Positions 5,773 through 29,265 of a DNA stretch of 64,000 nt are shown in pieces. Source of the DNA: an uncultured Chloroflexota bacterium (lineage in GTDB: Bacteria > Chloroflexota > UBA11872); the NCBI GenBank assembly GCA_958296175.1, contig OY282448.1:2230127-2294126 (forward strand), read 5' to 3'. The notes under the pieces are model-generated. The model saw nothing but the letters and a program-made list of their open reading frames with translations, was not told where the DNA came from and made no database searches. A program made the translations under genes and the position numbers. Position 1 is the stretch's first letter; the number at the start of each line of letters is the position of its first letter.

Positions 5773-6308
5773 GACGCGGCGGCCAGCCGGCGCGCGTAGC
5801 GAACCAGCGCCACGGGGCCTTCCAGGTCCAGCGCGTCCTCGCCGCCGTCGGGCGTCCAGCCGGCGGCCGCGTAGAACTGGCGCGCCGCCGGGTTGTCGCG
5901 CAGCGTCCAAAGGATCGCCGCGTCGTATCCCTGCGCGTGCAGCGCGTCGGTTGCCTGCCGCAGCAGCTCGGAACCGACGCCCTGCCGCTGCCAGCGCGGC
6001 GCCACGTAAAGCCCGTGAACCTCGCCCGTGTCCGCGGCCAGGCCGCCGCCGCGCGCCGCGCCGCTGATGACGAACCCGATCACCTCCGCGCCGGCCGCGG
6101 CCACCAGCCTGGCGGCGCGGGGGCGCTGCAATCCCTGGCGAATCCGCTGGACGCGCGCTTCGGTGACGTGCAGCTTGTCCAGATACGCATCGGCCACAAG
6201 GCCGCGAAAGCTCGTGGCCCAGGTCGAGAGCCGCAGCGCTTCCACCGCTGCCGCGTCGTCGTCAGTCATCGGGCGGATGGTCCAGGGGGCAGCGTCCGCG
6301 CGCGTCAC
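5769..6308 (-). CDS. GNAT family N-acetyltransferase
   Basis: Acetyl-CoA binding motif RWQRQGVGSELL; 179 aa; stop overlaps the tag start. Confidence 0.7.
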   Translation of the reverse strand: MTRADAAPWTIRPMTDDDAAAVEALRLSTWATSFRGLVADAYLDKLHVTEARVQRIRQGLQRPRAARLVAAAGAEVIGFVISGAARGGGLAADTGEVHGLYVAPRWQRQGVGSELLRQATDALHAQGYDAAILWTLRDNPAARQFYAAAGWTPDGGEDALDLEGPVALVRYARRLAAAS

Positions 6309-6564
6309 GGGGACGCCGCCAGCGAAGTCGGCGTTGGCAAACAGCGCGTCACGGGGCCGCCCGATCGCGTGATGGCCCGGCGGACGGCGCGGCGGTTGGG
6401 CCGCGGGAACTCAGGTGGGACGGCGGGCGCGCGCGCCCGCCGTCCTGGGCGCAGCCGCGGCGCGAGGTCGATGCACGTGCGCTCGTCCAGTCCATCCTGT
6501 CTGCCAGTATGACGCACGTCATAATCGGCGCTGAGATGCAACTGGCGCCCCCAGGACTCGCCGC

Positions 6565-7935: not shown

Positions 7936-8049
7936 CGACCACACGCCCCGCGCCGAGACGCTGCGCCGACCCCGCGCGCTGCCAGCCGCTACGGAGGTTG
8001 TCGAGCTAGATGGCGCGATTGACGATCCGACCCTGCGCGCTGCCAGCCG

Positions 8050-10451: not shown

Positions 10452-10605
10452 CTAGCGGCGTCTCCAGATCCTTGCCCAACGCCGAATCGACGCGGCCGAA
10501 CGCACGCTGAGCCACGCGCAGGCACAGGGGCGTGCGGCTCGCATGCCTCGTGTCGTGGATCGAGGCGCAAAACCCGTCACCCGCAGGCTCCCGTGCTGCG
10601 GAGGT

Positions 10606-13509
10606 CTACGGGAGGCGCCTGACCGCACGCGGATCTTCGTAAGGAGCATACGCCGCCTCGCCGTCTGCGGAGACCTCGATGCGCAGCACCGGGAGGTAGG
10701 CCGTGTCGCTCCGGGCCTCGGCGCTCGGCTCGCGCCGCAGACGCATTGCCAGCACCCAGACGCCCGGCCCGGGGATCTGGCCGGACGATGCCGCGTCGAC
10801 GAACGTCCCCTGGTCATCGCGCGCGGCAAGCCGGGACGTGCGCGCGTCGAAGTCAAACGTCTGGGGTGCTGGCGCCTCGTCGGGCGGAAAATGACCGGCG
10901 AACCACACCACGTAAATCGGCGTGCGATTGTGCGGGGGGACGGTCCGTGGAAGCGCCCGCGGCGAATCGTCCACGGCCACGACCAGCCAATCCTGTCCAT
11001 CCCAGTGCGTGGCCGTGTCCAGCAGCGTGGCCGTAAACACGGCGCGCCCATCCAGGGTGTGCGCGTCGGACACCCGCACGCTGGCGGCGATGGGCGGCGC
11101 GTCAGGCGGCATGATTGGCGCCACGGCGCCGCGCGGCGCGATGACGGCAAGCTCGTCGTTCCACCAGACTGGCTGGCGGCTGTCCGGCGGAAACATCCAG
11201 GGCAGCAACGGCAGCGGCGCCGCGACGAGGTCGGGCTCGACGCCGCCCAGCGGTTCGATCTGGAAGGGCCGCCGCAGATGCGCCACGCTCGAATCGAGCT
11301 GGCCGACCAGGCGCGCGTGGTCCAGCGACGCGGCGATGCGCACCATGGCCTTCGACTCGAACGGCGCAGGCAGCCAGACGACGGCGGACGCCGGCACGGA
11401 CTGCCGCAGCGCCTCGTACGAGGCGGGCGCTGGCGGCGCATCGATCTGCAGGAACGCCGGGCGCACGCGGTAGAGCGCGTCGGCGCCGTCGCGAACCAGA
11501 AGGTCGAAGTAGCGCGGATTCTCCAGCCGCCGCCGTGCCTGAGCCGGAAGCTCGGCCGCCCAGACGTCCGTGGCATGCACGTAGTCGACCTCCAGCCGGC
11601 GGACGGCGGTCGGATCGAGGAAGCCCGCGGCATCTCGATACGCGGCGCCAGTCATTCTGCCCAGGTGAAATCGTCCGGCAAGCCCAGACACGTTCGGTCG
11701 CCCCGTGGCAAACGTCATCCGATGGGGACTCGGTGAGAGGACTCTCGCGTCGACGGCCGTGCGGTCGCGGATGAATGCGGCGACGTCCGAGCGCGCCAGA
11801 GATCCGACCTGCTGCCGACTGATTGCGTGGATCCTGATCCCCGGCTGCTCCGCTGACGCATTGGAAACCTGCACGCCGTGCCCGACGGACAGCCCGAGAT
11901 TGCGAACCGGCGCCGCCGCGGTTGGCCAGATGACGAGGGCAACCACCACCGCGCCGGCCGCGTAGCGCCAGCGCGGCCGCAGGTCGTGCAGCCGGGCGCT
12001 GAGTGCAACCATCAACGCCAGCACCGCGAAGGTGCGTGCGTGCCCGTCGAATCTGACCAAATCGTGCGACGCCGAGCCGTAGCGGACCGTGAGGACGGCC
12101 AGCAGGAACAGCGCGCTGCCGGCCGCCAGCGCCAGCGCCAGGCGGTCGCGCCGGGCCAGCAGCGCCGCGGCGGCGGCCACGACGACGGGGCCCAGACCCA
12201 GCACGCCCACGCCGCCCGGCTGCGGGTCGAACGTTCCGACCAGCCGCCGATTGCCGGGATCCGCAGGCGCGCCCACGGACAAGCCCGACGCGGCCCCCTC
12301 GGTGAGCATGCCGGTGAGCGTGGAGGTGAAGACGCCCCCGCCCGCGGCAAGCAGGAGGACGGCAAGCGCCGGCCCGGCGGCGGCATGCGCCGCCGGGCGC
12401 AGGCGCCGCGGCATCGCCGCTCGGGTCGACCAAAGCGCCGCGGCCTCGAGCGCCGCCCATAGCGCCAGCACGATAGGCGCAACGGTTTCGTCGGCGAGCC
12501 CCAGGAACCCGACCAGCGCCGCCAACGTCACGGCGGCCGGCCAGCCCCCAGGCCGATTCGCTGCGGCAACGCCGCCGCCGACCACCCGCGCACCGCGCCT
12601 GGTCCCCGGTAGGCCGGCCGCCGCCCGCTCCAACACCACGAGCGCCAGCGCATAGGCCAGCACGAAGAACGGTTTGAACAGATTGGGCGGCGACGGGCCG
12701 TAGCCGTTCATCCCGCGAAATTCCCAGCTCCACGGCGGTTCGGTGGGCCAGTAGATGTCGAGCAGCGACGCGCGCAGGCCGGCGGACGGCACGCCGGCCG
12801 GGACGGGAACGTCCACCACGTGCGCTGGCGTGTAGACCACCAGCGTCCAGGCGCCCGCCGACAGCAGCAGCGGCACGGTGACCAGCACGGCGCCCCAGAA
12901 CGCGCGCGTCCACAGCGCCGTTGCCACGGTCAGCGCCAGGCTCACCCAGATATAGGCGCTCAGCAGCTCCATGGCGAACGCCAGGTCGGGGCCGACCGGC
13001 GGCGCCAACGCGCCCAGCAGCAGATCGGTGCCGTAGTGGTAATTGGCCGGCGCGCCAGGGCTGTAGGGCAGCTCCGGCGGGAACCCGCCCTCGCGAATCG
13101 CAGCGGCCAGCCCCAGGTGGAGGTGCGCGTCCGGCGTGTGCAACTGCTGCCGGGCCGCCAGGGCGACCCAGAAAAGCGCCAGGGCGGCGACGAAGAACCC
13201 GGCCGCAACGCGCGGCTGTGGCAGGAGGCGCGTGCGGCTGCGCCGCGCGCGCCAGGCAAGCGCGGCGGCAAGCGCCAGCATGACGACCCACCCCACGGCG
13301 GCGCCGGCGCGGCCGGGAACTGCGTACATGACGAAGTTGACCAGCAGCCCCCACAGCGCCGGCCCCACCACCAACCCCTGCGCCAGCGCCATGGCGTCGT
13401 CGTCCTGACGCAGGGCCGTGCGCACGATGACGAACCCGACCGCCGCCAGCGCGCAAAGCTCCGCCGCCAGCAGCAGCAGGCCGGGAAGGACGGTTGGGTC
13501 GACGGTCAT
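10606..13509 (-). CDS. Large polytopic membrane protein with an extracytoplasmic C-terminal domain (possible GT-C-type glycosyltransferase; function unknown), copy B
   Basis: Intact 967-aa ORF. Start chosen at MTVDPTVLPGLL by homology to the copy A start MRVDPTVVPGLL. The N-terminal half has 10 or more hydrophobic segments; the C-terminal half is soluble. The alternative 835-aa ORF 11102..13609 is rejected. Confidence 0.4.
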   Translation of the reverse strand: MTVDPTVLPGLLLLAAELCALAAVGFVIVRTALRQDDDAMALAQGLVVGPALWGLLVNFVMYAVPGRAGAAVGWVVMLALAAALAWRARRSRTRLLPQPRVAAGFFVAALALFWVALAARQQLHTPDAHLHLGLAAAIREGGFPPELPYSPGAPANYHYGTDLLLGALAPPVGPDLAFAMELLSAYIWVSLALTVATALWTRAFWGAVLVTVPLLLSAGAWTLVVYTPAHVVDVPVPAGVPSAGLRASLLDIYWPTEPPWSWEFRGMNGYGPSPPNLFKPFFVLAYALALVVLERAAAGLPGTRRGARVVGGGVAAANRPGGWPAAVTLAALVGFLGLADETVAPIVLALWAALEAAALWSTRAAMPRRLRPAAHAAAGPALAVLLLAAGGGVFTSTLTGMLTEGAASGLSVGAPADPGNRRLVGTFDPQPGGVGVLGLGPVVVAAAAALLARRDRLALALAAGSALFLLAVLTVRYGSASHDLVRFDGHARTFAVLALMVALSARLHDLRPRWRYAAGAVVVALVIWPTAAAPVRNLGLSVGHGVQVSNASAEQPGIRIHAISRQQVGSLARSDVAAFIRDRTAVDARVLSPSPHRMTFATGRPNVSGLAGRFHLGRMTGAAYRDAAGFLDPTAVRRLEVDYVHATDVWAAELPAQARRRLENPRYFDLLVRDGADALYRVRPAFLQIDAPPAPASYEALRQSVPASAVVWLPAPFESKAMVRIAASLDHARLVGQLDSSVAHLRRPFQIEPLGGVEPDLVAAPLPLLPWMFPPDSRQPVWWNDELAVIAPRGAVAPIMPPDAPPIAASVRVSDAHTLDGRAVFTATLLDTATHWDGQDWLVVAVDDSPRALPRTVPPHNRTPIYVVWFAGHFPPDEAPAPQTFDFDARTSRLAARDDQGTFVDAASSGQIPGPGVWVLAMRLRREPSAEARSDTAYLPVLRIEVSADGEAAYAPYEDPRAVRRLP

Positions 13510-13701: not shown

Positions 13702-14157
13702 CTACCGCCGTTGGGCCAAGCGCTCGGTGTCCGCCTGGCGCAGCGGGCGGTGGGCGTCCAGTGTCACGGTGTCGCTGTGGTCGGGCGGGTAAGGCGGGCT
13801 GGTGATGAAGAGCGCGCGGGCCGGAGCGCCGCCGGCGGCTGTCAGTTGCAGCGTGTGTCCCGGCGGGGTGACCACGGATTCACCCGCGGCCGCCGTGCAT
13901 GCGCGCACCGCGCCCAGGTCGGCGTCATAGGTTGCGGCGCGGATGCGGCCGGCCAGCACGTAGGTCACCTGCTCCAGCGTCAGGTGCGCGTGCACGCCGT
14001 AGATGCGCCCGGGTTCGAGGCTGCCCTCGGCCAGCGCCAGATGCGCGCAGGGGCTGACGTCGATCGGACGCACCACAATCCCATCCTGCGCCGTCACGGG
14101 CGGCCCCGGCGTTCGCGTCCCAACGTGCGCACCGACGGCATCCGTGGTTTCGGTCAA
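13702..14157 (-). CDS. Cupin domain protein
   Basis: 151 aa with a cupin two-His motif (GVHAH...). Overlaps the upstream gene by 4 bp. Confidence 0.55.
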   Translation of the reverse strand: MTETTDAVGAHVGTRTPGPPVTAQDGIVVRPIDVSPCAHLALAEGSLEPGRIYGVHAHLTLEQVTYVLAGRIRAATYDADLGAVRACTAAAGESVVTPPGHTLQLTAAGGAPARALFITSPPYPPDHSDTVTLDAHRPLRQADTERLAQRR

Positions 14158-16013
14158 GGCGTCGGGTCGACTGGCCGCGGGCGGTGGAGGTCCGCTGGGG
14201 TTCCGGTCGATAACGGTCCCCCGAACGCGTCGATGACTTCGTCCGAGTCACGGCCTGGGATTGGTTTTCCCATGGCGTCCTCTATGGCGTCCAGCAGCTT
14301 GACCGCGCGGTCGCGGATGAAGCCGCCAAAGTCGTTGCGGCGCAGCAGCTCGGGTTCGATCCAGTGTGTTGCGAGCACCTCGTCCAGGCGATCTCTGCTG
14401 ATGTTCCCGGTGTTCACCAGCCTGTCGAGATATTGACTCGGAGCGCTGCCGCCGAGCATTCGATTGGTCTCGCTGGTGAGCGGCGCTTTGTTCACCACGC
14501 TATTGGAGGTCGAATAATCCACGCCATTATTCGAACACCAAGCCCGCGGGAAAATGTGATGGATGTCGACAGGCAATGAGAACCCCATGGTGTGCGCAAT
14601 CGGATTCGCATTCTTGAAGTCGTGGCTCCCCTGCTTTACCATGAGGGAAAAGAGGCCCTTGTATGCGGCGCTGTTTCGAGTACTGAGGCCAAGCAGCCGC
14701 GTAGGAGCAAAATTCGCGTCGCGAATAGTACGCGGCTCTTCGTTGCCCTCGGTCCACCCAACGACATCCTGGATGTCCATCGTGTAACGAGTTTCGTTGG
14801 CGCCGCCGTACATCTCGCCCAGTACGCCGCACCAGTACCAGCGGGCGAGCTTCGCGAGGACGTCGTGTGCGTCGAGCTGCTTGTCGAGATAGGCGCAAAT
14901 CGCCGCCAAGGGCACGAGCTGAGTTCCGTACGGCAGGTTTCGCCGGTCGAAGACCCTCTCACGGGTCAGCAACTGCGCGGCGCGTTGAAAACCGTGCTCG
15001 ACGGACGAGGCGTTGTCCTTATACTCATCGAGCGTCAGCCGCAGCACGTCGCGGCGCCGGACGCTGACCGCGCTCGTACTTCCCGGCGCGCGGCTGCGCT
15101 TGTAGCTGGCAAGCAGCGTAACCGCCTGCAAGAAGTCGGTGCTGCTCACTCCGCGCAGCACGTTCTGCTCTGCAATCCGCTCACGCCGTTCTGCCCAGTC
15201 GTCCCGCAGGCGGAAGTTGTCAGCGGCGAAGCTGGCCGTCACGAGCTCGAAGACCGACAAGGTGACGCCGCCCGTGTTCACCTTTTCGAATACCTGGCAG
15301 ACGGCCTCTTTGGGAGTTTCCCTCTTTAACTCAATGACTGGAACTTTGTATTTATTAATCGGAAGCCAGATTTTCGCAAGAAACTGGTCGATGAACTCGA
15401 CTTTTCCAGGATTGAACTTGAAGTACTCTTTGTATCCAGAGTTCCATTGAAAAGCCTCGACAGCGTTGAAGATCATCTCCAGCGGGTACAGTCCACGCTC
15501 ATACTCACGCTCGCGCGTTGTTACGTCGAGTACCACCGTGCGCCCAAAATCGGCCGTGCGCACCTTCGATTCAGGAAGCGAGAGAACCGCTTCTTCCCGG
15601 TCCAGGTCGGGGTCGAGGCATTTGGCCATGTCCAGATAATAATACAGTTTGGTTTCCTGGCCTCGCGTCGTTCGCGTGGGGACAGGGCGGCCGCTCATGA
15701 GCGCGAGAAAAAGCGAGGTCAGCCGCTGTTGGCCGTCGAGAACCAGGCCGTTGGGCGAAGTGAGAGAGTCGAGGTGGACGCCTGCGAACGGCCGCGGCAA
15801 GAAACTGCCGCTCTCCCCGCCAGTTTCCAGCACCATCACGGCGCCGATCGGGTAGGAGAGCGTGACACTGGCGATCAGCGAACGAATGTGCGCATCGTCC
15901 CAGATCCAACTGCGCTGAAAATCGGGCAGCTGGATGGCGCCTTTGCCGATGTCACTCAGGAGTTCCGAGAGCAGCGGCTCGTTTGTCTGGAACGTTCCCG
16001 AGGAGAATGCCAT
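14154..16013 (-). CDS. GmrSD-family type IV (modification-dependent) restriction endonuclease; DUF262 (ParB-like NTPase) + DUF1524 (HNH-like)
   Basis: N-terminal DUF262 hallmark LDGQQRLTSL. C-terminal DUF1524 motif DIHHIFPRAWC followed by N..V. 619 aa. The gene lies in a roughly 58% GC stretch against a roughly 70% background. Confidence 0.8.
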   Translation of the reverse strand: MAFSSGTFQTNEPLLSELLSDIGKGAIQLPDFQRSWIWDDAHIRSLIASVTLSYPIGAVMVLETGGESGSFLPRPFAGVHLDSLTSPNGLVLDGQQRLTSLFLALMSGRPVPTRTTRGQETKLYYYLDMAKCLDPDLDREEAVLSLPESKVRTADFGRTVVLDVTTREREYERGLYPLEMIFNAVEAFQWNSGYKEYFKFNPGKVEFIDQFLAKIWLPINKYKVPVIELKRETPKEAVCQVFEKVNTGGVTLSVFELVTASFAADNFRLRDDWAERRERIAEQNVLRGVSSTDFLQAVTLLASYKRSRAPGSTSAVSVRRRDVLRLTLDEYKDNASSVEHGFQRAAQLLTRERVFDRRNLPYGTQLVPLAAICAYLDKQLDAHDVLAKLARWYWCGVLGEMYGGANETRYTMDIQDVVGWTEGNEEPRTIRDANFAPTRLLGLSTRNSAAYKGLFSLMVKQGSHDFKNANPIAHTMGFSLPVDIHHIFPRAWCSNNGVDYSTSNSVVNKAPLTSETNRMLGGSAPSQYLDRLVNTGNISRDRLDEVLATHWIEPELLRRNDFGGFIRDRAVKLLDAIEDAMGKPIPGRDSDEVIDAFGGPLSTGTPADLHRPRPVDPTP

Positions 16014-19470: not shown

Positions 19471-20229
19471 TCACGCCGCGGCCGTCCGAAACGGCGACAC
19501 CGCCGGACGCGCCGGCGAGGTGGACGACGGGCAAACGTCGTTCAGCGTGCAGCCGTCGCAGTCCGGCCGCCGCGCGTCGCAGACCCGCCGCCCGTGCCAG
19601 ATGACGGCCGTGCCGGCAAAAATCCAGGCGCCGCGGTCCAGGGTGTCCATCAGGTCGCGTTCGATCGTGACCGGGTCCGCCGCGCGCGTCAGCCCCAGCC
19701 GCTGCGAGAGCCGCTTGACGTGCGTATCCACCACCACGCCGCTGGCCACGCCAAAGGCTTCGCCCAGCACCACGTTGGCGCTCTTGCGCGCCACGCCGCG
19801 CAGGCGCAGCAAGTCCTCCATGCGGCGCGGCACCTCGCCGTCGAACTCGTGCACCAGCTGCGCCGCCGTTTCTCGAATGGCGCGCGCCTTGCTGCGGAAG
19901 AAGCCCGTCGGGTGGATCAGCGCTTCCACTTCCAGCTGCGAGGCCGCCGCCAGCGCCTGCGGCGTGGGAAAGCGCCCGAACAAGGCCGGCGTCACCCGGT
20001 TCACCGTCACGTCGGTGGTCTGCGCCGACAAGATCACCGCAATCAGGAACTGAAACGGCGAGCGGTAGTCGAGTTCCGCCGCCGCGTCCGGATACAGCGC
20101 GCGCAGCCGCCGCACGATCTCCGCCGCCCGCGCGCGCCGCGCCGCTTTCGACTCCCGCCAGCGCCGAACCACCAACGCCGGCCGCCCCGCGCGCCCCCGA
20201 GTCCTCCTCCCAGCCATACCCAGCAGCAT
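19471..20229 (-). CDS. nth: Endonuclease III (DNA glycosylase/AP lyase)
   Basis: HhH-GPD motifs: FQFLIAVILSAQTTD, LRLRGVARKSANVVLGEAFG (catalytic Lys), VDTHV. Fe-S cluster C-x6-C-x2-C-x5-C at the C-terminus. The exact start is uncertain. Confidence 0.85.
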   Translation of the reverse strand: MLLGMAGRRTRGRAGRPALVVRRWRESKAARRARAAEIVRRLRALYPDAAAELDYRSPFQFLIAVILSAQTTDVTVNRVTPALFGRFPTPQALAAASQLEVEALIHPTGFFRSKARAIRETAAQLVHEFDGEVPRRMEDLLRLRGVARKSANVVLGEAFGVASGVVVDTHVKRLSQRLGLTRAADPVTIERDLMDTLDRGAWIFAGTAVIWHGRRVCDARRPDCDGCTLNDVCPSSTSPARPAVSPFRTAAA

Positions 20230-20454
20230 ATCCACCCCACCGCGCCGGCGGCCACAAGGCCGAAAGACCGGCATAAGCAGTCAGCGGCCAGGGGCCGAGG
20301 GCGCGGGACGTGCGGCAAGCGCCGCGCTTGCCGCTCCCCCGGCCAAGGACGCCGCCGCGGCCGCAGCGCAGGCGGCCCACGGCCAGCCCACGGCCGGCCC
20401 ACGGGCGGCCCCTGCGCCTATAATCCCAGCGGCCGCCGCGCCCGGACGCCCTCC

Positions 20455-23400
20455 GTGCCCATCGCCAACCTCGACGACGCCTACGAGCTCGACCAAGCCG
20501 TCGGGCGCATCCTGCGCGCGCCCGACCCGCGCCAGCGTGCGGAAGCCGTCCGGCGGCTGTTCGTCGAGGTGCTGGACTTCCATTCGCAGTCCGGCCAGGT
20601 TTCGTTGCGGCCGCCGCCCGCCGGTGCGCAGCTTCCCGCCGCTGCCGAGCGCGTCGCGGTGTTGGACGGCGTGCACGTCTGTTACGTCGCGCTCCAGGCG
20701 CCGGAAAACGACCGCGTGCGCACGGCCGAAGCGTCCGCCGCGGCGCGGCGGCTGGCCGACCAGCTGGGCGACGACCTGCTGCTGGCCGTCTCCAACGCCT
20801 CCGGCCGCCAGCTGCACCTCATCCATCCGCGCGTACAGGGTGCGCGGCCCACGCTGCGCCGTCTGGTGTTCGAACAAGGCCTGCCGCGCCGCACCGCCGT
20901 CCAGCAGGCCGCCAACATCTACGCCGAATACCGCGCGTCCCGCAGCATCCGCGCCGCCCTGGACGCCGCCTTCGACGTCGAGCCGGTCACGCGGCGCTTC
21001 TTCAGCGACTACAAGAAAGTGTTCACCCAGGCCGAACGACTGGTCACCGGCTTCGGCCCCGACCAGGCCGACGACAAGCGCCTGTTCGTGCAGACGCTCT
21101 TCAACCGGCTCATGTTCGTGCACTTCCTCTCGCGCAAAGGCTGGCTGACCTTCCAGGGCAAGAACGAATACGTGCAAGCGCTTTGGGACAGCTACCAGTC
21201 CCGCCGCCCCAGCGAAACCAACTTCTACCGCGACCGTCTGCACCCCCTGTTCTTCTGCGGCCTCAACAACCCGTCGGGCACGGACGTGAACGGTCGCTAC
21301 ATGCGGAAGGTCTACGGCGACGCGCCGTTCCTGAACGGCGGCCTGTTCGAGCAAAGCGCACTGGACCGGCGGCCAGGCGTGCAGGTGCCCGACGAAGCCA
21401 TCGCACCCGTCGTGCAAGCGCGCAGCGGCTTGTTCCAGCGCTTCAACTTCACCGTCATGGAATCCACGCCCTACGACGTGGAAGTGGCCGTGGACCCGGA
21501 AATGCTGGGCAAAGTGTTCGAGGAACTGGTCAACGAACGCCACGCCAGCGGCGCCTACTACACGCCGCGCCCCGTGGTGGCCTTCATGTGCCGCGAGGCG
21601 CTGAAAGGCTTTCTGGAACACCGCGTGGACGAGTTGGACGCTCAGACTGTGGAAGACTTCGTGGACCGGCGCGACCCCTCCCGCGCCACGCTGGCGCAGG
21701 CGATCCAGCTGAGCAGCGCGCTGGACGACGTCACCGTCATCGACCCTGCCTGCGGTTCCGGCGCCTACCTGCTGGGCATGCTGCAGGAACTGCTGGAGCT
21801 GCAAACCACGCTCTACAGCCAGAAGCTGCGCCGCGACGCGCGCACCTTCTACCAGCTGAAACTGCACGTCATCCAGCGCAACCTCTACGGCGTCGACGTC
21901 GACCCGTTCGCCGTCAACATCGCCAAGCTGCGCCTCTGGCTCTCCCTGGCCATCGACTACGACGGCGACAAACCCGAGCCGCTGCCCAACCTGGACTTCA
22001 AGATCGTCTGCGGCGACAGCCTGCTCGGGCCGGAGCCGGTGCTGCACCTCTCGGCAAAGAAGTCGGAACTCGGCGAGTTGAAGGGCAAGTTCATGCTCGC
22101 CACGGCGCAAAAGGAAAAAGACGAGCTGCGCGGGGGCATCGCGGCTGAGCGCGCTCGGGTCGAGCAGGTGCTGGCGGGCGCATCCGCACCCGAAGGCGCG
22201 GTGAACTGGCGCCTGGACTTTGCCGAAGTGTTCGAGAAGCCCGGCAGCTTCGACATCGCCATTGCAAACCCGCCCTACGTGCGGCAGGAAAAGATCGGTC
22301 CCAGCAAAGCAAGGCTCGTTCGGCAATACGCCGGAGCCGTGAACGCCCGCTCGGACCTGTATTGCTATTTCTACGCGCGTGCGCTGCAACTGCTGCGGCG
22401 CGGCGGCCAACACGTCTTTATCTGCTCCAATAGCTGGCTGGACGTTGGATACGGCGCGCGGCTCCAGGATTTCCTGCTCTACAACGCGCACGTTCGCGCC
22501 ATCTACGAAAGCGCGGTGGAACGGCAATTTTCGACCGCCCAAATCAACACCGTCATCAGCGTCATCGAAAAGAACGGTGTCTGCGACGAGAGTCCGACGC
22601 GGTTCGTGTCGCTGCGGGGCGAGTTCGAGCAGGCGATGGCCGACCCGACGCTTCGCCGCCAGATTACCAAGACCCGCCGGGAACTGCTGGACGCCGCAAC
22701 GAGCGGCGTCGACAGCCGAGGACACGCCAAATTCGTGGGCGACAAGTGGGGCGGCAAGTATCTGCGCGCCCCGGACATCTATCACCACATCCTGACAACG
22801 TATAGCGACAAGTTCGTGCGGCTGGGCGATATCGCGACAGTGAGATTTGGTATAAAGACCGGCGCCAATGCGTTTTTCTTTCTCGACGAGGCGCGCATCC
22901 AGCAGTGGAACATCGAAGAAGAGTACCTTGCTCCCGTAATGACCAGCCCCCAAGAGTCCCGCAGCATCCTCGTCGACCCCGACACGCTTCCGAAGAAGCT
23001 CTTTGTGTGCCACAAGGAGAAAGACGAGCTTAGACACACGGGAGCGCTGGCGTACATTCAATGGGGTGAGACGAATGAGTACCACAAGCGGCGCAGCATG
23101 GTTTCGCGAAAGAGATGGTACGATCTGGGAATACGAGACGGGGTATATCTGGCAATGAATTTGTTAGTGCATGCGAACGCAAGAACGTATCTTTATAAAG
23201 AAGCGGTGTTTTGCAGCAACAACTTTCATGTATTTGCTTCAAAGCATAAGAATGCTAGTGTGTGCACATCACTTAATTCCACGCTTTCTCAGCTTAGCAT
23301 CAACGTGGAGTCACGATCCAATTTTGGCGAAGGTGTTCTGGAGATACAAACATATGAAACCGCTAATTTGCGGATTGTAAAGCCTGAACATATTACGACC

Positions 23401-23628
23401 ATAGATGAGTGTCTGTTCACTTCATCGGACCTTGACATTGTAAGCCGAGAGAATGGCGATCCAGCTTGGCAAGTTGACGATGTATCTGCGAATCGTCGCG
23501 CTATAGACGATGTAGTGTTTGACGTGCTTGGCCTGACCCAAGACGAACGTGACGCAGTGTACGAAAGCGTTATCGAACTAATCAGCAACCGCCTCAGCCG
23601 CGCAAGCAGCGTGCATACCACGAGGTGA
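20455..23628 (+). CDS. MmeI/Eco57I-family (COG1002) N6-adenine DNA methyltransferase, about 1057 aa. The N-terminal PD-(D/E)xK catalytic residues appear lost, so it is probably methyltransferase-only, as in DrmMI or PglX. The C-terminal target-recognition part is sharply low in GC.
   Basis: Motifs: helical-domain PFLNGGLFEQ, GAYYTPRPVV, motif I VIDPACGSGAYLLG, motif IV NPPY (IAIANPPYVRQE). GTG start at 20455. The upstream part of ORF 19291..23628 is antisense to nth and the enolase gene and is rejected. GC falls from about 68% to about 40% after roughly 23050. Confidence 0.85.
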   Translation: MPIANLDDAYELDQAVGRILRAPDPRQRAEAVRRLFVEVLDFHSQSGQVSLRPPPAGAQLPAAAERVAVLDGVHVCYVALQAPENDRVRTAEASAAARRLADQLGDDLLLAVSNASGRQLHLIHPRVQGARPTLRRLVFEQGLPRRTAVQQAANIYAEYRASRSIRAALDAAFDVEPVTRRFFSDYKKVFTQAERLVTGFGPDQADDKRLFVQTLFNRLMFVHFLSRKGWLTFQGKNEYVQALWDSYQSRRPSETNFYRDRLHPLFFCGLNNPSGTDVNGRYMRKVYGDAPFLNGGLFEQSALDRRPGVQVPDEAIAPVVQARSGLFQRFNFTVMESTPYDVEVAVDPEMLGKVFEELVNERHASGAYYTPRPVVAFMCREALKGFLEHRVDELDAQTVEDFVDRRDPSRATLAQAIQLSSALDDVTVIDPACGSGAYLLGMLQELLELQTTLYSQKLRRDARTFYQLKLHVIQRNLYGVDVDPFAVNIAKLRLWLSLAIDYDGDKPEPLPNLDFKIVCGDSLLGPEPVLHLSAKKSELGELKGKFMLATAQKEKDELRGGIAAERARVEQVLAGASAPEGAVNWRLDFAEVFEKPGSFDIAIANPPYVRQEKIGPSKARLVRQYAGAVNARSDLYCYFYARALQLLRRGGQHVFICSNSWLDVGYGARLQDFLLYNAHVRAIYESAVERQFSTAQINTVISVIEKNGVCDESPTRFVSLRGEFEQAMADPTLRRQITKTRRELLDAATSGVDSRGHAKFVGDKWGGKYLRAPDIYHHILTTYSDKFVRLGDIATVRFGIKTGANAFFFLDEARIQQWNIEEEYLAPVMTSPQESRSILVDPDTLPKKLFVCHKEKDELRHTGALAYIQWGETNEYHKRRSMVSRKRWYDLGIRDGVYLAMNLLVHANARTYLYKEAVFCSNNFHVFASKHKNASVCTSLNSTLSQLSINVESRSNFGEGVLEIQTYETANLRIVKPEHITTIDECLFTSSDLDIVSRENGDPAWQVDDVSANRRAIDDVVFDVLGLTQDERDAVYESVIELISNRLSRASSVHTTR

Positions 23629-23766: not shown

Positions 23767-24750
23767 TCACATGAGCATTGACATGTTTAGACCTTGCATG
23801 TCTTCCTTGACGGGGACTTCGAGTTTTGTGACAAAGTACCGTGGCGCACTCAATTTTACGCGTTGAATGCGTACGCTGATGCGCACTCGCTGCTTCAACA
23901 GCGCGTTTATCGGCTTTTCCTCGGCAACGGTGCGCTCGACTTTGGCCTGAATCACTTCCCCCTTACCGCCGTCTGGTGATTGGCCCGCTGGCTCGTCAAC
24001 GACAAATTCCGCTAACTGCCGCTTTGGTAAGTAGCCTTGAAAGTATCCGACCAGTGTGATGTGTTCCTCAGGGATTGGTTTCTGACTCAAACGCTTCACG
24101 CTGGCCTGAACTTGGCTCACGTCACGAAATGCAAACACGCCGCCCTTGAATCTCAGGCGGCATGTGGCCTCTTTGGAATGCAGCACGTCAACGAATTTTC
24201 GTATGGCGTTTACCGCGCGTTCGTCGGTTTCATCCCAAATATGAGCCATTGCATCGTCGCTCTCGACCGATGCCTTCAGGATGTCCTGCGTCCGCGCAAT
24301 CGCCGCCTCGACGTGACTCAGCATCGACTCGAACGCCGTCTGTGAGGACGCGCCCTCGAGTTGGAACCCAAATGACCCCCGCACGACGTCCGTAATCATG
24401 AGCCGGTAGTCTTCTCGATTCGGGATGCGGTCGAGTGCGCCCAAATCGGCTGCCGAATGCTGGCTTGCCCCGACGGCGGCGACGGCGTTTTCAAACGTCC
24501 GGACGGCGTCCCCGCCAAATCCAGCGTCGATGCCTTGTCGGCCCGCGACGGGTTTCCCCTCGAAGCTAAGAAGCGCTTCTGTGGGTTGGGCGGGAAGTAC
24601 CGCAGGGTAGTCGAGGAGTTCCGCCTCGACCTCGGCAAGCCGCTGTGTCAGCGTGTGTTGCCGGATCGCACTTTCCGGTGCCGTGCGGTCGAGCATGTCT
24701 TTCAGCGCGGCTTGTTCGGAAAGCAGAAAACTATGTTCGCGCCTGCTCAT
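23767..24750 (-). CDS. Hypothetical protein (327 aa), second gene of a two-gene operon inside the defence locus
   Basis: No motif recognised. Its start ATG overlaps the upstream stop (TAATG), and a strong RBS AGGAGGACAGTA lies in the upstream gene's 3' end. Moderately reduced GC. Confidence 0.5.
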   Translation of the reverse strand: MSRREHSFLLSEQAALKDMLDRTAPESAIRQHTLTQRLAEVEAELLDYPAVLPAQPTEALLSFEGKPVAGRQGIDAGFGGDAVRTFENAVAAVGASQHSAADLGALDRIPNREDYRLMITDVVRGSFGFQLEGASSQTAFESMLSHVEAAIARTQDILKASVESDDAMAHIWDETDERAVNAIRKFVDVLHSKEATCRLRFKGGVFAFRDVSQVQASVKRLSQKPIPEEHITLVGYFQGYLPKRQLAEFVVDEPAGQSPDGGKGEVIQAKVERTVAEEKPINALLKQRVRISVRIQRVKLSAPRYFVTKLEVPVKEDMQGLNMSMLM

Positions 24751-25367
24751 TACTGTCCTCCTTCACGGTCGAGTTTGTCGAGTTCGGACCTGGCTGCGTG
24801 ATCTTCACCCTCAGCCAGATCGATTCGCACGTAGCCTTTCCACACGCCGTCGCGCGTGTGCGACCACAGGCTATACCAATACGTCAGATCATCCACTAAC
24901 TCATCGATCTTTGCCGGATTCATAACGACGTGGTACGCGTGTAAGCCGTGGATCTTACGAATGGTGTTTGGCTCGAATAAATCTGGATATTGTTCGAGCA
25001 CATCCATTTCCTGTTGATCGTCTGTCACGTGGATGAATGTAATCACGTCAATGTCCCCAGGTGGCCGGCCTTCCGTCTGCTCGACGTCTTCGACGAAGCT
25101 TCCGTCGACCCACTGAAAGCCCCGGGTCAGGCCGGCCGCGTGCAGCCTTTCTCGGTATTCCAGTAGTCCCTGCAGCAGCTTCCGTCTGTTGGGCGTGCGT
25201 CCGAATTTTGCAACCGTGTCGAGAAGGGACGCGCGGTACGGAGATCGACGCCGAGCTGTGGGATTCTTCGGGTCGACGGCGGGAAGCAACCCCGTAAGGC
25301 GCCACGCGGGAATCTGGCTGACGATGATTTCGCTTCTGAACCGATGGCGGCGCACGCCTGTGTGCAT
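24750..25367 (-). CDS. Hypothetical protein (205 aa) with a possible minimal nucleotidyltransferase motif (GS-x16-DIDV)
   Basis: Motif WVDGSFVEDVEQTEGRPPGDIDVITF resembles a pol-beta-type NTase hG[GS]...DxD. First gene of the two-gene operon, divergent from the PLD-SNF2 gene. Confidence 0.45.
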   Translation of the reverse strand: MHTGVRRHRFRSEIIVSQIPAWRLTGLLPAVDPKNPTARRRSPYRASLLDTVAKFGRTPNRRKLLQGLLEYRERLHAAGLTRGFQWVDGSFVEDVEQTEGRPPGDIDVITFIHVTDDQQEMDVLEQYPDLFEPNTIRKIHGLHAYHVVMNPAKIDELVDDLTYWYSLWSHTRDGVWKGYVRIDLAEGEDHAARSELDKLDREGGQ

Positions 25368-25414
25368 TTCGAGTCTAGCATCGCGTCCGCTTCAGACTGC
25401 TCGACCACGACCGA

Positions 25415-25526
25415 TTGTTTGACCGTTGTTTGATTGGACAGGCCAAAAACTCCCGAAAACGGTACTGGTCGATGGTCGGTGAACCTGTTAGGCGGTTCTG
25501 CGGTTGTTTGACCGTTGTTTGATTGG
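25415..25526. promoter_or_regulatory. Divergent promoter region with two perfect 23-bp direct repeats TTGTTTGACCGTTGTTTGATTGG (25415-25437 and 25504-25526). Each repeat contains a tandem TTGTTTGA, giving four sites in all; a putative operator array.
   Basis: Exact repeats read directly in the 302-bp intergenic region between the divergently transcribed hypothetical operon and the PLD-SNF2 gene. Confidence 0.4.
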
Positions 25527-25668: not shown

Positions 25669-28600
25669 GTGAACATCTTGCACGCCGGGACCGAACCGCC
25701 GCTGCTGGAGCGGCTGCAGGAGATGCTGGGCAGTTCCGCGCGGGCGGACATTGCCGTGGGCTACTTCTTCATGAGCGGGTTTGCGCAGGTGGCGGACGCC
25801 CTGGCCGGCCTGCAGCGGGTGCGCATTCTGGTTGGCCGCACGGACCGGCGCGTGTTGGACGATGTGGCGCGGGGGTTGCAGCAGGCGCAGGCGCTGAGCG
25901 CGCGGCTGGAGGCCGACGAGCTTACGCCGCGCGGCCAGCGGCCGGCCATCGTGCGAAACGCCGCGGCCAGCATTGCGGAAGGCGTGGCGCTGCTGCCGCA
26001 GGACGACGGCTCGCAAGCCGCGGTGATGCGCCTGCGGGACATGATTGCCGCGGGCCAGGCGGAGGTGCGCGCCTATCCGCGCGGCCCGCTGCACGCCAAG
26101 GCCTATCTGTGCTGGTACGCCAACCACGCGGAACCGGGCGCGGCCGTGGTGGGGTCGTCCAACTTTACGCTGGCGGGGTTTACGGGCAACACCGAGCTCA
26201 ACGTGCGCGTGACCGGGGACGCCGAGATGGCCGAACTGCGGAGGTGGTTCGAAGACTTGTGGCGCGATTCGCAGGACGTCGGCGCGGCGCTGCTGACCGA
26301 ACTGAACCGCTCGTGGGCGCTGGCGCGCACGCCGCCCTACCACGTGTATCTGAAGGCGCTGTACGAGCTGTATTTCACGCCCGTCGGAGACCCCGACCTC
26401 ACGCTGGCGCAGCCCGCGGAGGAGCTGGCCAATTTCCAACTGGACGCGGTGCGGCGCGGGCTGGCCATGATCGAGACGCACGGCGGCTGTTACATCGGCG
26501 ACGTGGTGGGGCTGGGCAAGACCTACGTGGGGGCCGAGCTGCTGCGCCAACTGCGCCAGAGTTATCCGAACGACGGCCCGCCGCTGATCATCTGTCCGGC
26601 TGGATTGCGGCCCATGTGGCGGCATTTCAACGAACGTTTCGGCCTGGGCGCGGAGGTCATTTCGCACAGCAGCATCCGTCCCGCGCCCGCTCCGCAGTTC
26701 GACGAAGCGCTTGGCCGGTTCGTCGACCCCGAGCCGGACGGTCGCAGCGGCGTGGTGCTGCACGACGAATATCCGAACCGCGGGCCGGTGCTGGTGGACG
26801 AGGCGCACAGCTTCCGCAACGTCAACCAGCGCTCGACCGGCTTGCAGTCCTATCTGGACGCCGGCGACCACAAGGTGGTCTTGCTCAGCGCCACGCCGCA
26901 GAACCTGGGTCCGATGGACATTTATCGACAACTGCGGCTGTTTCTGGACGATCTGGACCACGGCCTGAACATCGAGCCGCTCAATTTGGAGGAGTATTTC
27001 CACAACGCGCGGCGCTGGATGGATTACCGCACGGCGGACGAGAATTACAAGACCGAATACGCGGCCTGGCGTGAGGGCGGATCGCGCGGCGCGCCGCCCA
27101 TGGACAAACCCAAGCCGCCTCCCGTGCCCCGCGCCGACGTGCAGCAGGTGCTGGCGCCGCTGTTCATCCGCCGCCGCCGCCGCGACATCCGCGAGCTGTA
27201 CGGCGACACGGCCACCGTGGACGGCGCCCCGGTGCGTTTCCCGGATCCGGTGCTGCGCAACGTGGAGTATCGGTTGGACAAGGTGTACGCCAAGGCCGGA
27301 TCACTGGAGGACTTGCTTGCGCGCTTGAAAGAACATCGAGCGGCCAGATACCGCGCTACCAAGTATTTGCTGGCTGAGGCCAAGGACAACGACGAGTACC
27401 GGGACTTGTTCAGAGCGGGGGACCGCATTCCGCGGCTGATGCGCGGGCTGCTGCTCAAGCGGCTGGAATCCAGCATCGAGGCGTTTCGCTCTACCTTGAA
27501 GTCGCTGCTGCGCAGCAACCGCAACTTTCGCACGGCGCTGGAGGCCGGCTACGTGCCGGTTGGCGCCACGGCGACGCGTCTGCTGGCCGGGGAGATCTTC
27601 GACGCCGACGAGGCGTTGCACGCTCTCCATGCGGAGGAAAGACGGCGGCAAAACCAGGACGTTCGGCGCCTGCTGGATGATCTTCCGCATGCCGAGCGGT
27701 ACGAGCGCGCGCGCCGCCTGCTCGACGACGACGCCGGCGGGCGTCAGCCCCAGGCGGCCAAGCGTTCCACGCTGGTGCATTCCGTGGCGGACTTCGACGC
27801 CGATCGGTGGCTGGCGGACGTGGACGCGGATTTCGAGGTTCTGCGCGGCATTGCGGACCGGGTCGAAGGCATCGGGCCGGGCGACGACGACAAATTGCGC
27901 ACGCTGCGCCGCTTTTTGCAGCAGCCGGAGGCGGCGGCGGACAAGGTGCTGATCTTTTCCGAAGCCGAGACGACGATCGACTACCTGTATCGAGAGTTGA
28001 ACCCGGACGAACGAGACCCGACCTTCGCCCGCTTGACGGGTGCGACGGGCAACGCGGCGGAGGTCATCCGACGCTTTGCGCCGCGCTCGAACCTTGGACG
28101 GAACGCTCCGCGCCCGGCGGTCGAAATCCGCGTGCTGCTGGCCACCGACGTCGTGTCCGAGGGCCAGAACCTGCAAGACTGCGCCCGCGTGCTGAATTAT
28201 GACCTGCACTGGAATCCGGTGCGGCTGATCCAGCGCTTCGGTCGCGTCGACCGCATCGGGTCCGAGCACTCGGTCATCCACTTGCACAACATGTGGCCCG
28301 ACACCGCGGTGGACGCCGAGCTGGAGCTGACGGAGCGGCTCGGCAACCGCATTCAGACGTTCCACGACTCGATTGGGCTGGACAGCAAGCTGCTGTCGGA
28401 CACGGAGCGCCTGAACGCGGCGGACATGTACCGCATCTACGCCGAAGGGCGCCTGCCGGACGAGGACGACGAGCTGGACGAGGTGGCGGTCAATCAGCGC
28501 GCCGTGGCGCTCTTGCAGCGGATTCAGCGCGGCGACCCCGAACTGTGGCGCACGGTGACGACCCTGCCCGACGGGGTTCGCTCGGCGCTGAGCGGCGGCG

Positions 28601-29265
28601 GCGAGCCCGCGGACGACGACGGCGCCGCGGTTCGCCTGCAGCAGGTGCTGGAAGTTCCCGGCATGCAGATGCCGCTGGTGTCGCCGGACGAGTCGGATGC
28701 GGAACTCTCGCCCTTCGACCCTCCGCGGCCCGGCGAGACGCTGGTGCTGCTGAGCGCGGGCAAGGTCAAGGGCTGCTACGCCGCGGCGGACGGACGGGAC
28801 CCGCGGCAGATCAGCCCGGCCCAGTTCGCGCGCGCGGCTGAATGCGCCCCGGATACGCCGGGTCGGCCGCTGCCGTCCACCACCAACCAGCGCGTGATGA
28901 GCGCTTTCGAGACGTTCCGGGCCGACGTCCAGCAGCGGCTGGGCCGCGCCCGGCGTCCGCGCGATACGCAGACGCGCCGCTATGTGTCCCGCGGTCTCCG
29001 AAACGCCAGGAACGATCTCGAAGCGTCGCCGGAGGACGCGCAACGGATCGACGTGCTGCAGCGCGTGTTCTACGCCGACCTGCCGCCGCGGGTGGAAGAC
29101 GCCCTGGCTGATATCCGGCGGTTGGGGTTGCAGGGGGAGGCGTTAGTGCGGCGTCTGGAAGCGCTGCGCGAGTTTCACCGACTCAATCCCCCCGACGCTT
29201 CCGTCGAGCCGGCGCGCCCCGCAGCGCAGGTCATCCGCATCGTCTGCTCCGACGGCCTGGTCTAA
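25669..29265 (+). CDS. Fusion protein: N-terminal phospholipase-D-family (single HKD) nuclease domain + SNF2/RAD54-family helicase (SNF2_N + helicase_C), 1198 aa
   Basis: PLD HKD motif HAKAYLCW...GSSNFT. SNF2 motifs: I GDVVGLGKTYVG, II VLVDEAHSFRN (DEAH), III LLSATPQN, V LLATDVVSEGQNLQ, VI QRFGRVDRIG. GTG start at 25669. The antisense ORFs 25567..27003 and 27301..29043 are rejected. Confidence 0.85.
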   Translation: MNILHAGTEPPLLERLQEMLGSSARADIAVGYFFMSGFAQVADALAGLQRVRILVGRTDRRVLDDVARGLQQAQALSARLEADELTPRGQRPAIVRNAAASIAEGVALLPQDDGSQAAVMRLRDMIAAGQAEVRAYPRGPLHAKAYLCWYANHAEPGAAVVGSSNFTLAGFTGNTELNVRVTGDAEMAELRRWFEDLWRDSQDVGAALLTELNRSWALARTPPYHVYLKALYELYFTPVGDPDLTLAQPAEELANFQLDAVRRGLAMIETHGGCYIGDVVGLGKTYVGAELLRQLRQSYPNDGPPLIICPAGLRPMWRHFNERFGLGAEVISHSSIRPAPAPQFDEALGRFVDPEPDGRSGVVLHDEYPNRGPVLVDEAHSFRNVNQRSTGLQSYLDAGDHKVVLLSATPQNLGPMDIYRQLRLFLDDLDHGLNIEPLNLEEYFHNARRWMDYRTADENYKTEYAAWREGGSRGAPPMDKPKPPPVPRADVQQVLAPLFIRRRRRDIRELYGDTATVDGAPVRFPDPVLRNVEYRLDKVYAKAGSLEDLLARLKEHRAARYRATKYLLAEAKDNDEYRDLFRAGDRIPRLMRGLLLKRLESSIEAFRSTLKSLLRSNRNFRTALEAGYVPVGATATRLLAGEIFDADEALHALHAEERRRQNQDVRRLLDDLPHAERYERARRLLDDDAGGRQPQAAKRSTLVHSVADFDADRWLADVDADFEVLRGIADRVEGIGPGDDDKLRTLRRFLQQPEAAADKVLIFSEAETTIDYLYRELNPDERDPTFARLTGATGNAAEVIRRFAPRSNLGRNAPRPAVEIRVLLATDVVSEGQNLQDCARVLNYDLHWNPVRLIQRFGRVDRIGSEHSVIHLHNMWPDTAVDAELELTERLGNRIQTFHDSIGLDSKLLSDTERLNAADMYRIYAEGRLPDEDDELDEVAVNQRAVALLQRIQRGDPELWRTVTTLPDGVRSALSGGGEPADDDGAAVRLQQVLEVPGMQMPLVSPDESDAELSPFDPPRPGETLVLLSAGKVKGCYAAADGRDPRQISPAQFARAAECAPDTPGRPLPSTTNQRVMSAFETFRADVQQRLGRARRPRDTQTRRYVSRGLRNARNDLEASPEDAQRIDVLQRVFYADLPPRVEDALADIRRLGLQGEALVRRLEALREFHRLNPPDASVEPARPAAQVIRIVCSDGLV

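Follow-up and report, generated by a model that had tools for sequence, protein, structure and literature searches.

What does a nuclease fused to a DNA motor do in a bacterial genome, and with which partner does it act? The question is raised by a gene in the window analysed here, a stretch of 64,000 nucleotides from an uncultured Chloroflexota bacterium (assembly GCA_958296175.1, contig OY282448.1, positions 2,230,127 to 2,294,126). Its product joins a phospholipase D (PLD) nuclease-type domain of the HKD kind to an SNF2 ATPase, and is called HKD-SNF2 below. The best explanation is that the gene pair is an ATP-dependent restriction-modification system, in which HKD-SNF2 is probably the restriction subunit and a methylase of 1057 amino acids its partner. 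In the window, the methylase gene lies 2 kb upstream of the HKD-SNF2 gene, on the same strand.

The two proteins divide the labour between them. The methylase has the only sequence-reading part, a hypervariable and sometimes invertible target-recognition domain (TRD), and has no conserved nuclease motif. HKD-SNF2 has the only conserved nuclease residues, together with a complete motor, and has no recognisable reader of DNA sequence or of modified bases. A split enzyme resembling the Type III and Type ISP restriction enzymes would be the most economical model for such a pair.

The nuclease-motor protein and its family

The features of the HKD-SNF2 gene are as follows (all on the forward strand; residue numbers are those of the protein, and AF2 stands for AlphaFold2).

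25669..29265, forward strand: HKD-SNF2 gene, 1198 amino acids, GTG start; predicted restriction (nuclease and motor) subunit
25696..26313, forward strand: N-terminal PLD (HKD) nuclease-type domain, residues ~10–215, with a helical insertion at ~60–127 (Pfam PLDc_2 and RE_NgoFVII, SauUSI profile match, AF2 secondary structure)
26092..26163, forward strand: catalytic half-site H142-x-K144 ... G162-S-S-N165, in single copy, invariant in 29 close and 76 diverse homologues
26431..28368, forward strand: SNF2 ATPase core, residues ~255–900 (motifs, alignments, AF2 model)
26509–26523, forward strand: Walker A motif of SNF2 lobe 1
26797–26808, forward strand: DEAH motif of SNF2 lobe 1
27655..27759, forward strand: private insertion of ~32–35 amino acids, residues ~663–697, in the helical region between the lobes (alignment of homologues)
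27892–28260, forward strand: lobe 2 (Helicase_C), including motif VI
28369..29262, forward strand: family-specific C-terminal region, residues ~900–1198 (alignments, AF2 model)

The gene is real and intact. Its guanine-plus-cytosine (GC) content at the three codon positions (0.73/0.46/0.87) is the coding pattern of this 70% GC genome, and the same measure identifies the overlapping open reading frames (ORFs) in other frames as shadows. An identical protein sequence is present as a called gene in a public protein collection.

The PLD domain is recognised by two Pfam families, PLDc_2 (PF13091, residues 22–198, 42.7 bits against a cutoff of 27) and the RE_NgoFVII PLD family (PF09565, residues 136–200, 24.8 bits against a cutoff of 23.8). 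The catalytic string LHAKAYLCW...VVGSSNFT spans residues 141–167, and is the sole HxK...GSxN motif in the protein. An earlier note on this DNA, made from the sequence alone, had also counted one such motif, although its placement of the motif at about residues 150–200 was slightly off. With a single HKD half-site per chain, the active site would be expected to form in a dimer, as it does in Nuc, BfiI, SauUSI and MtsD.

The SNF2 part carries GLGKT (281–285), DEAH (377–380), SAT (407–409), SEGQNLQD (830–837) and QRFGRVDRIG (855–864). Conserved helicase motifs I, II (DExH), III, V and VI are therefore all present, as the earlier note had claimed with its mention of the DEAH box, and they are invariant in the homologue alignments. 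Pfam matches Helicase_C at residues 742–864, while the SNF2-related stretch at residues 270–319, at 22.4 bits, falls just under its threshold of 24.9; PF00176 is present in the precomputed annotation of many homologues.

Domain boundaries were taken from a predicted structure. An AF2 model built from an alignment of 29 sequences (65–74% identity) had a pLDDT (predicted local distance difference test) score of 49.5 and was discarded; the prediction was repeated with 107 diverse sequences, and reached a pLDDT of 72.9 and a predicted template modelling (pTM) score of 0.61. In this second model the PLD fold ends near residue 215 and is followed by a linker helix (223–235), a low-confidence segment (238–243) and SNF2 lobe 1, which begins at residue 255; the boundary that the earlier note had put near residue 230 agrees with this. 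Lobe 2 spans residues ~703–900, and a helical insertion of ~270 residues separates the two ATPase lobes, so that the SNF2-type fold of two RecA lobes with helical insertions is present. Searched against the PDB, a profile of the HKD-SNF2 family matched the PLD region of SauUSI (7clg, E 6.9e-5), the only solved PLD that it reached, and the best PDB sequence match for lobe 2 was RapA. When the PLD region was searched against the PDB as a single sequence, all matches were spurious ones to designed Kelch proteins.

No Pfam match was found C-terminal of residue 864 at E ≤ 0.1, and in particular no DUF3427, SRA or EVE-type reader. The extreme C-terminus (residues 1192–1197; positions 29245–29262) is a conserved beta-strand of the form (I/V)-C-S-x-G, in which Cys1193 is kept in 74 of 76 sequences across phyla. 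This region is a candidate methylase-docking element. The private insertion (..QDVRRLLDDLPHAERYERARRLLDDDAGGRQPQAA..) is found in none of the aligned homologues. The peptide RRLLDD occurs twice within it, with no tandem repeat in the DNA, and a tandem duplication as the source of the insertion was ruled out by this repeat check. Confidence in the AF2 model is low at residues 688–700, inside or near the insertion.

The family is large. More than 6500 homologues of HKD-SNF2 were identified, the best 120 being full length at 63–74% identity, and a scan of one genome per species gave at least 599 loci, from Chloroflexota, Bacteroidota, Proteobacteria, Cyanobacteria, Verrucomicrobiota, Acidobacteriota, Planctomycetota, Nitrospirota and other phyla. 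Across 76 full-length sequences of 26–72% identity, H142, K144, G162-S-S-N165, E176, N178, GLGK, D377-E378 and H380 are invariant, as are residues Q855, R856, G858, R859, D861 and R862 of motif VI; the HKD motif itself is invariant in alignments of 29, 48, 76 and 107 sequences. The earlier note had named a degenerate PLD motif in orthologues as the outcome that would undo its proposal, and the domain is not degenerate. Homologues in such number, with their catalytic residues unchanged, place the observation far beyond chance. Invariance over such deep divergence argues for an essential rather than an auxiliary nuclease.

A search with residues 1–250 against 1.84 billion cluster representatives, at E ≤ 1e-10, gave 663 clusters (50% identity). 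Of the 150 clusters listed, ~60 are proteins of 1040–1230 amino acids with the PLD domain at the extreme N-terminus, and most of the other PLD clusters listed are contig-end fragments; in this PLD subfamily, fusion to SNF2 is therefore the rule. No HKD-SNF2 homologue was found in 50,697 phage records. The family is patchy over phyla and is found on plasmids, including those of model organisms, a pattern expected of accessory defence genes and not of housekeeping genes.

A fusion of PLD and SNF2 domains is not new as an architecture, being both catalogued and very widespread, and the earlier note was mistaken in treating it as unusual: it is known as PADLOC C3a139 and from a 2023 study (PMC9881135), and has a structurally studied analogue in MtsD. 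The best PADLOC model for the window protein is PDLC01075 ('C3a139, HKD+Snf2'), a model with no curated cutoff, which is matched with an E-value of 8.9e-50 by residues 15–898 on profile positions 14–762 of 948. Its label was traced to a screen of genes beside type III CRISPR cassettes, with 4 occurrences (Shah, 2018). Members of the family go under NCBI names such as 'NgoFVII family restriction endonuclease', 'phospholipase D-like domain-containing protein' and 'helicase-related protein'.

The partner methylase and the conserved pair

Three features belong to the methylase gene.

20419..20424, forward strand: TATAAT hexamer, a possible -10 element 31 nucleotides upstream of the methylase GTG (read directly; weak)
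20455..23628, forward strand: partner methylase, 1057 amino acids, gamma-class N6-adenine methylase of the Eco57I/MmeI/PglX/DrmMI type (Pfam, PADLOC, exact-sequence gene call)
~22819–23394, forward strand: TRD of the methylase, M_Eco57I_C (Pfam)

The GTG start is fixed by frame-specific GC content, and the identical protein sequence exists as a called gene; the TATAAT hexamer was not picked up by a two-hexamer promoter scan. The protein carries the motifs DPACGSGAYL and NPPY, and matches the Pfam domains Eco57I (4e-33), MmeI_Mtase, N6_Mtase and M_Eco57I_C. In PADLOC it matches REase_MTase_IIG (1e-78), DrmMI (3e-31) and PglX, and in NCBIfam only PglX models, all below threshold. Such methylases are currently annotated 'Type IIG'. 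In an alignment of 46 homologues the catalytic core is conserved, and the C-terminal 350 residues, which hold the TRD, are hypervariable. The N-terminal 180 residues are unconserved in the same alignment, with no invariant acidic or lysine pattern, and over the first ~165 residues there is no alignment with the nuclease portion of Type IIG profiles. The methylase therefore supplies sequence reading and no conserved nuclease.

I fetched 80 loci related to the one in the window, and sought methylase homologues in them by tblastn with methylase queries. In 38 of them the flank on each side measures 4.5 kb or more, and these are referred to as informative. A methylase homologue is present in the flank of 69 of the 80 loci and in 37 of the 38 informative ones, and is on the same strand as HKD-SNF2 in 65 of the 80. 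Both gene orders occur among these same-strand loci, with the nuclease first in 43 and the methylase first in 22; where the nuclease is first, the two genes overlap or nearly touch in 27 cases (gap of -37 to +28 nucleotides). All-against-all clustering of the 2968 flanking ORFs yielded no other gene in more than 14 loci, antisense shadow ORFs aside. The pairing of methylase and HKD-SNF2 is thus kept in many phyla, with no conserved third gene. The observation made in the earlier note is confirmed and its interpretation supported; its proposal that HKD-SNF2 could be the effector arm of its locus fits this pairing.

The sole informative locus in which no methylase was found is also one in which the nuclease has decayed. 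Its HKD-SNF2 gene (L006, 9986–13363) has an in-frame stop, dividing it into 963 and 160 amino acids, and its first 44 residues are missing; judging from these lesions, it is probably a pseudogene. A decayed nuclease without its methylase is what one would expect if restriction genes do not survive the loss of their methylases.

A DprA-like gene (PF02481, DNA_processg_A) of 150–250 amino acids was seen in 14 of the 80 loci, on the same strand and downstream of the methylase, for example at 16655–17350 in L071 and 12508–13134 in L013. In one subclade, its product may act as a third component that is optional.

The space between the two genes is often occupied. In a relative whose nuclease is 61% identical to that of the window (L007), an inverted TaqI_C-type TRD cassette lies between the two genes, together with a tyrosine recombinase (integrase). 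A 145-nucleotide inverted repeat (6136–6280 and 7552–7696, 77% complementary) is common to this intervening stretch and the methylase gene, and the methylase ORF, at 727 amino acids, looks truncated. The whole arrangement, at 4721–8845 of the locus, resembles a TRD shufflon. Programmed inversions have been described in genes labelled 'Type II RM CDS (Cj0031-like)' (RM, restriction-modification; CDS, coding sequence) that have beside them a CDS with both a PLD (cd09178) and an SNF helicase domain (PMC9881135). Cargo was found between the pair in five relatives (L003, L005, L007, L008 and L081), consisting of PIN/VapC toxin-antitoxin genes, TPR proteins, and the integrase with its inverted TRD cassette. 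Intergenic gaps of 0.5–5.5 kb occur in both gene orders in relatives with intact genes, and the methylase-nuclease spacer behaves as an insertion hotspot. Genes may also gather beside the pair: on the 20-kb plasmid pANACY.05 of Anabaena cylindrica (L082), genes for an ATP-binding protein and a DUF4276 protein follow directly after the methylase of a homologous pair (7503–9301), which is another case of defence-type genes clustering with the system.

One of these relatives has been studied in part. Plasmid pSYSX of Synechocystis PCC 6803 (L081) encodes a homologous pair split by a VapBC module at 10487–11120; its nuclease (SGL_RS01585) is 29% identical to HKD-SNF2 (E 3e-86) with all motifs present, and its methylase is 28% identical to that of the window. 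This methylase, slr6050, is M.Ssp6803IV, to which the asymmetric motif GA(m6A)AGGC (m6A, N6-methyladenine) is assigned, and its knockout never segregated, so that the gene was termed essential (PMC6105098). By my inference, such a failure to segregate is what would be expected if the neighbouring HKD-SNF2 nuclease is active, and a two-gene system, if real, would explain this otherwise unexplained 'essential' methylase.

A proposed split restriction enzyme, its relatives and its rivals

In the mechanism proposed here from knowledge of the families involved, the methylase would bind a short asymmetric site through its TRD and methylate one adenine on one strand, thereby marking self DNA. At unmethylated sites, it would instead recruit or license the HKD-SNF2 subunit. 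SNF2 ATPases translocate on duplex DNA, and the SNF2 core would use ATP to move along double-stranded DNA in this manner. With half a PLD active site per chain, cutting would need two chains. They might be dimerised from the outset, like SauUSI and MtsD, or come together when two motors approach each other from sites in inverted orientation, like the Type III and Type ISP enzymes. The composite HKD site would then cut both strands in turn, metal-free and via a phosphohistidine intermediate, as BfiI and Nuc do. Translocation-coupled cleavage is thus inferred from family knowledge. A dimer forming on collision would solve the problem of the unmarked daughter duplex left by replication, and the collision model would match the inverted-site preference of Type III enzymes and of MANTIS. 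The hemimethylation step has precedents among homologous methylases, namely M.Ssp6803IV at GAAGGC (PMC6105098) and DrmMI at ACACAG.

How does this pair relate to known systems? No DUF499, DUF3780, DrmA/DrmB (DUF1998), PglZ, BrxC or cas gene was found in a scan of probable coding ORFs that covered the window from 6.5 to 42.7 kb, and none of these is conserved in the 80 related loci. The nearest analogue in architecture is MtsD of MANTIS (BR type 2, Gao_RL), a dimer whose chains each join a PLD to a superfamily 2 (SF2) ATPase and which has one composite PLD site; for MtsD a 2.2 Å cryo-electron microscopy structure is available. Like the window protein, MtsD has an N-terminal single-HKD PLD domain fused to an SF2/Swi2-Snf2-type ATPase, and in MANTIS, which acts against unmethylated DNA, this effector is paired with an N6-adenine methylase that hemimethylates asymmetric sites; MANTIS restriction requires the MtsD ATPase and favours inverted sites. 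However, MANTIS needs MtsA (DUF499 AAA+) and MtsB (DUF3780) for both methylation and restriction, and neither was seen in the window scans or is conserved in the related loci. DUF499 operons have been described with a COG1743-type methylase (PMC7641849), whereas that of the window is of the Eco57I/PglX type with its own TRD. The window protein is also ~300 amino acids longer than MtsD, and scores 121 bits against a cutoff of 1100 with the NCBIfam PLD-helicase anti-phage model NF042964.

Class 1 DISARM likewise has an SNF2 helicase adjacent to an Eco57I-type N6-adenine methylase, DrmMI, which hemimethylates ACACAG, and a PLD protein in the system. Of the secondary profile matches of the window pair, those to DrmD and DrmMI rank among the best. 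The earlier note had suggested DrmD and BrxHII as comparators, and they are indeed next-best matches in PADLOC and NCBIfam, far below the cutoffs for membership: the DrmD equivalog NF038317 scores 138.6 bits against 610, and NF038318 scores 78.6 against 950. In DISARM, the PLD is a separate protein, DrmC, while here it is fused to SNF2, and DrmA and DrmB are absent. The DISARM PLD is dispensable, whereas the PLD catalytic residues are invariant in the HKD-SNF2 family. In both Class 1 DISARM and Dpd the three activities are spread over separate proteins and further core genes are present, and the window proteins score far below the cutoffs of their equivalogs.

There is also a resemblance in logic to restriction enzymes proper. 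In Type III (EcoP15I) and Type ISP (LlaGI, LlaBIII) enzymes, a methylase with a TRD marks one strand of an asymmetric site, and an ATP-driven SF2 motor with a nuclease needs communication between sites. The same arrangement of methylase-TRD and ATP-driven motor-nuclease is what is proposed for the window pair, by analogy. The parts differ, the nuclease being a PLD and not a PD-(D/E)xK or Mrr domain, the motor belonging to the SNF2 family and not to the Res or Type ISP kind (the Pfam ResIII score is 14.5 bits, under the cutoff of 22.5), and the methylase being a gamma-class Eco57I-like enzyme and not a Type III Mod. Type ISP enzymes are moreover one polypeptide, and the window system is two.

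A PLD nuclease working with an SF2 ATPase motor in restriction is known from SauUSI (Type IV) and from CglI and NgoAVII. In the latter two, PLD and helicase-like subunit are distinct proteins, and the methylase is a C5 enzyme. The MANTIS paper cites SauUSI and the CglI/NgoAVII enzymes as the precedent class. SauUSI differs from the window protein in that its own C-terminal TRD reads methylated cytosine and no methylase is needed; no such reader was found in HKD-SNF2. BfiI and Nuc have one HxK...GSxN half-site per chain, as here, with the active site at the dimer interface and metal-independent catalysis via phosphohistidine. They work without motor, ATP dependence or methylase partner, however, and BfiI has its own B3-like DNA reader. 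Finally, HmaA and ZorD are bacterial Swi2/Snf2 ATPases fused to a nuclease and used against phage (HmaA matches HKD-SNF2 in PADLOC at 2.6e-21), but in both the nuclease, a PD-(D/E)xK domain, sits at the C-terminus, and their partners are HmaB/HmaC and ZorA/ZorB/ZorC. Membership in MANTIS (BR type 2), DISARM, the SauUSI type and Type III was rejected, since defining components are missing or scores are below threshold. In the literature searched, no paper was found that names or tests a two-gene system of methylase and HKD-SNF2.

Several points weigh against restriction by this pair. The same literature holds no measured activity for any member of the HKD-SNF2 family, and the authors of the MANTIS study failed to reconstitute MtsD cleavage in vitro. 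The non-segregation of slr6050 may have arisen otherwise, for instance through polar effects or through the VapBC module that splits the pair, and the authors of that study (PMC6105098) never mention the helicase gene. In the window, 2 kb of foreign DNA splits the pair and HKD-SNF2 carries its private insertion of 32 amino acids, and this copy could be uncoupled or impaired. Finally, with DrmC dispensable and loss of the DISARM methylases not toxic, a PLD beside an SNF2 motor and a PglX-like methylase is no guarantee of classical restriction. The DISARM findings also favour the idea that the pair is a BREX- or DISARM-like exclusion module, which would block replication of foreign DNA without classical cleavage and keep the PLD as an auxiliary or back-up effector. 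So do the next-best profiles, which for the motor are DrmD, BrxHI/BrxHII and DpdE, and for the methylase DrmMI and PglX. Such a module is nonetheless unlikely given the profile scores, far under the family cutoffs as for DrmD above, the lack of PglZ, BrxC, DrmA and DrmB in the window scans and of their conservation in the related loci, the invariance of the HKD catalytic residues over deep divergence, and the failure of the slr6050 knockout to segregate.

The splitting of the pair by a 2-kb low-GC block with two opposite-strand genes, together with the insertion at residues 663–697, could also mean that the window copy is a decoupled or decaying remnant, in which the foreign block or the insertion has inactivated restriction and left an orphan methylase and an inert helicase. 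Decay does occur in the family, as in L006. I consider this improbable for the present copy, which has a full-length ORF with all catalytic residues intact and a native codon-position GC that argues against recent drift; cargo between the pair is common in relatives with intact genes, as with the VapBC module of Synechocystis, and the insertion sits in a variable helical region between the ATPase lobes. HKD-SNF2 might otherwise be a stand-alone modification-dependent (Type IV) enzyme like SauUSI, with an unrelated methylase beside it. The order of PLD and SF2 ATPase is that of SauUSI, whose PLD region the family profile matches, and a GmrSD-type Type IV gene lies 10 kb away. The C-terminal region has no detected DUF3427, SRA or EVE-type reader, however, and a methylase in all but one of the informative loci, its gene often overlapping or nearly touching that of the nuclease, would be inexplicable for an independent enzyme, which makes this account very improbable. 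The faintest chance of all is given to a housekeeping or CRISPR-accessory factor, whether a RapA-like ATPase for RNA polymerase recycling or repair, or an accessory of type III CRISPR systems. RapA is the best match for lobe 2, a glycosylase gene of the HhH-GPD family lies upstream of the methylase, and C3a139 was first flagged beside type III cas cassettes in 4 genomes; but the family is patchy across phyla and found on plasmids, and a function of the RapA type has no need for a fused conserved nuclease or a TRD-bearing methylase. The CRISPR accessory role suggested by the C3a139 label was rejected, as there is no cas context in the window scans or the 80 loci.

Taken as a whole, the HKD-SNF2 family looks like a motor-driven restriction-modification system that is both minimal and very common, and whose pair of SNF2 motor and PglX-like methylase also underlies BREX type 3, DISARM class 1, ARMADA and the BR systems. 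A bolder proposal, which I consider possible but rather doubtful, is that it forms a minimal class of ATP-dependent restriction-modification system unrecognised so far, in which cutting would happen only where two motors arriving from inverted unmethylated sites complete one HKD site, a solution to the hemimethylation problem without the DUF499 loader of MANTIS, and in which the spacer would be a recurrent landing pad for toxin-antitoxin genes, other defence cargo and TRD shufflons. If the two-gene restriction model is right, the pair would be the simplest known build of motor-driven, hemimethylation-based restriction from an SNF2 ATPase, and a reference point for the larger BREX, DISARM, Dpd, ARMADA and MANTIS systems, which reuse the pair of SNF2 motor and PglX-like methylase and whose mechanisms are debated. 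What the window adds is one intact member with a probably swapped TRD, a cargo insertion and the private insertion of 32 amino acids.

A probably imported segment and the wider neighbourhood

The features around the pair are listed here.

14154–16013, reverse strand: GmrSD_N (DUF262) Type IV-restriction-like gene, ~4 kb upstream of the methylase (Pfam)
19471–20274, reverse strand: HhH-GPD base-excision glycosylase gene, divergent from the methylase
23767..24750, reverse strand: cargo gene 1, 327 amino acids, between methylase and HKD-SNF2; no family
24750..25367, reverse strand: cargo gene 2, a DUF6932 protein of 205 amino acids (Pfam DUF6932 3.8e-29; PADLOC candidate PDC-M63A 2.7e-11)
25412–25437 and 25501–25526, forward strand: two copies of a 26-nucleotide element CG(A/G)TTGTTTGACCGTTGTTTGATTGG, in the 301-nucleotide spacer upstream of the HKD-SNF2 gene

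The GC content falls from 0.70 to 0.41–0.55 at the start of the TRD (~22850), and stays low through the two cargo genes to ~25450. The TRD and the spacer look like a single imported low-GC segment, which suggests that recognition specificity was probably swapped recently. As the cargo genes lie on the opposite strand between the pair, methylase and HKD-SNF2 must be transcribed separately.

Cargo gene 1 has no match in Pfam, PADLOC or NCBIfam except a sub-threshold one to ARPP-2. It was considered as an inverted spare TRD, by comparison with L007, and this was rejected, since it has no similarity to the methylase and the window holds no long inverted repeat. The product of cargo gene 2 carries a GDIDV nucleotidyltransferase-like motif, and the stop and start codons of the two genes overlap. 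They may be a toxin-antitoxin or small defence pair; both are absent from all 80 related loci.

The 26-nucleotide element is present in two copies where none is expected by chance, and contains TTGTTTGA twice in each copy. It was not found in 82 related loci. These repeats may be a putative operator or regulator binding site.

The wider neighbourhood is metabolic, apart from the HhH-GPD and GmrSD_N genes. The glycosylase is probably a coincidental neighbour. The GmrSD_N gene lies in a patch of lower GC (0.61), with metabolic genes between it and the methylase, and the relative L003 also has a GmrSD_N gene, which there adjoins its HKD-SNF2 gene.

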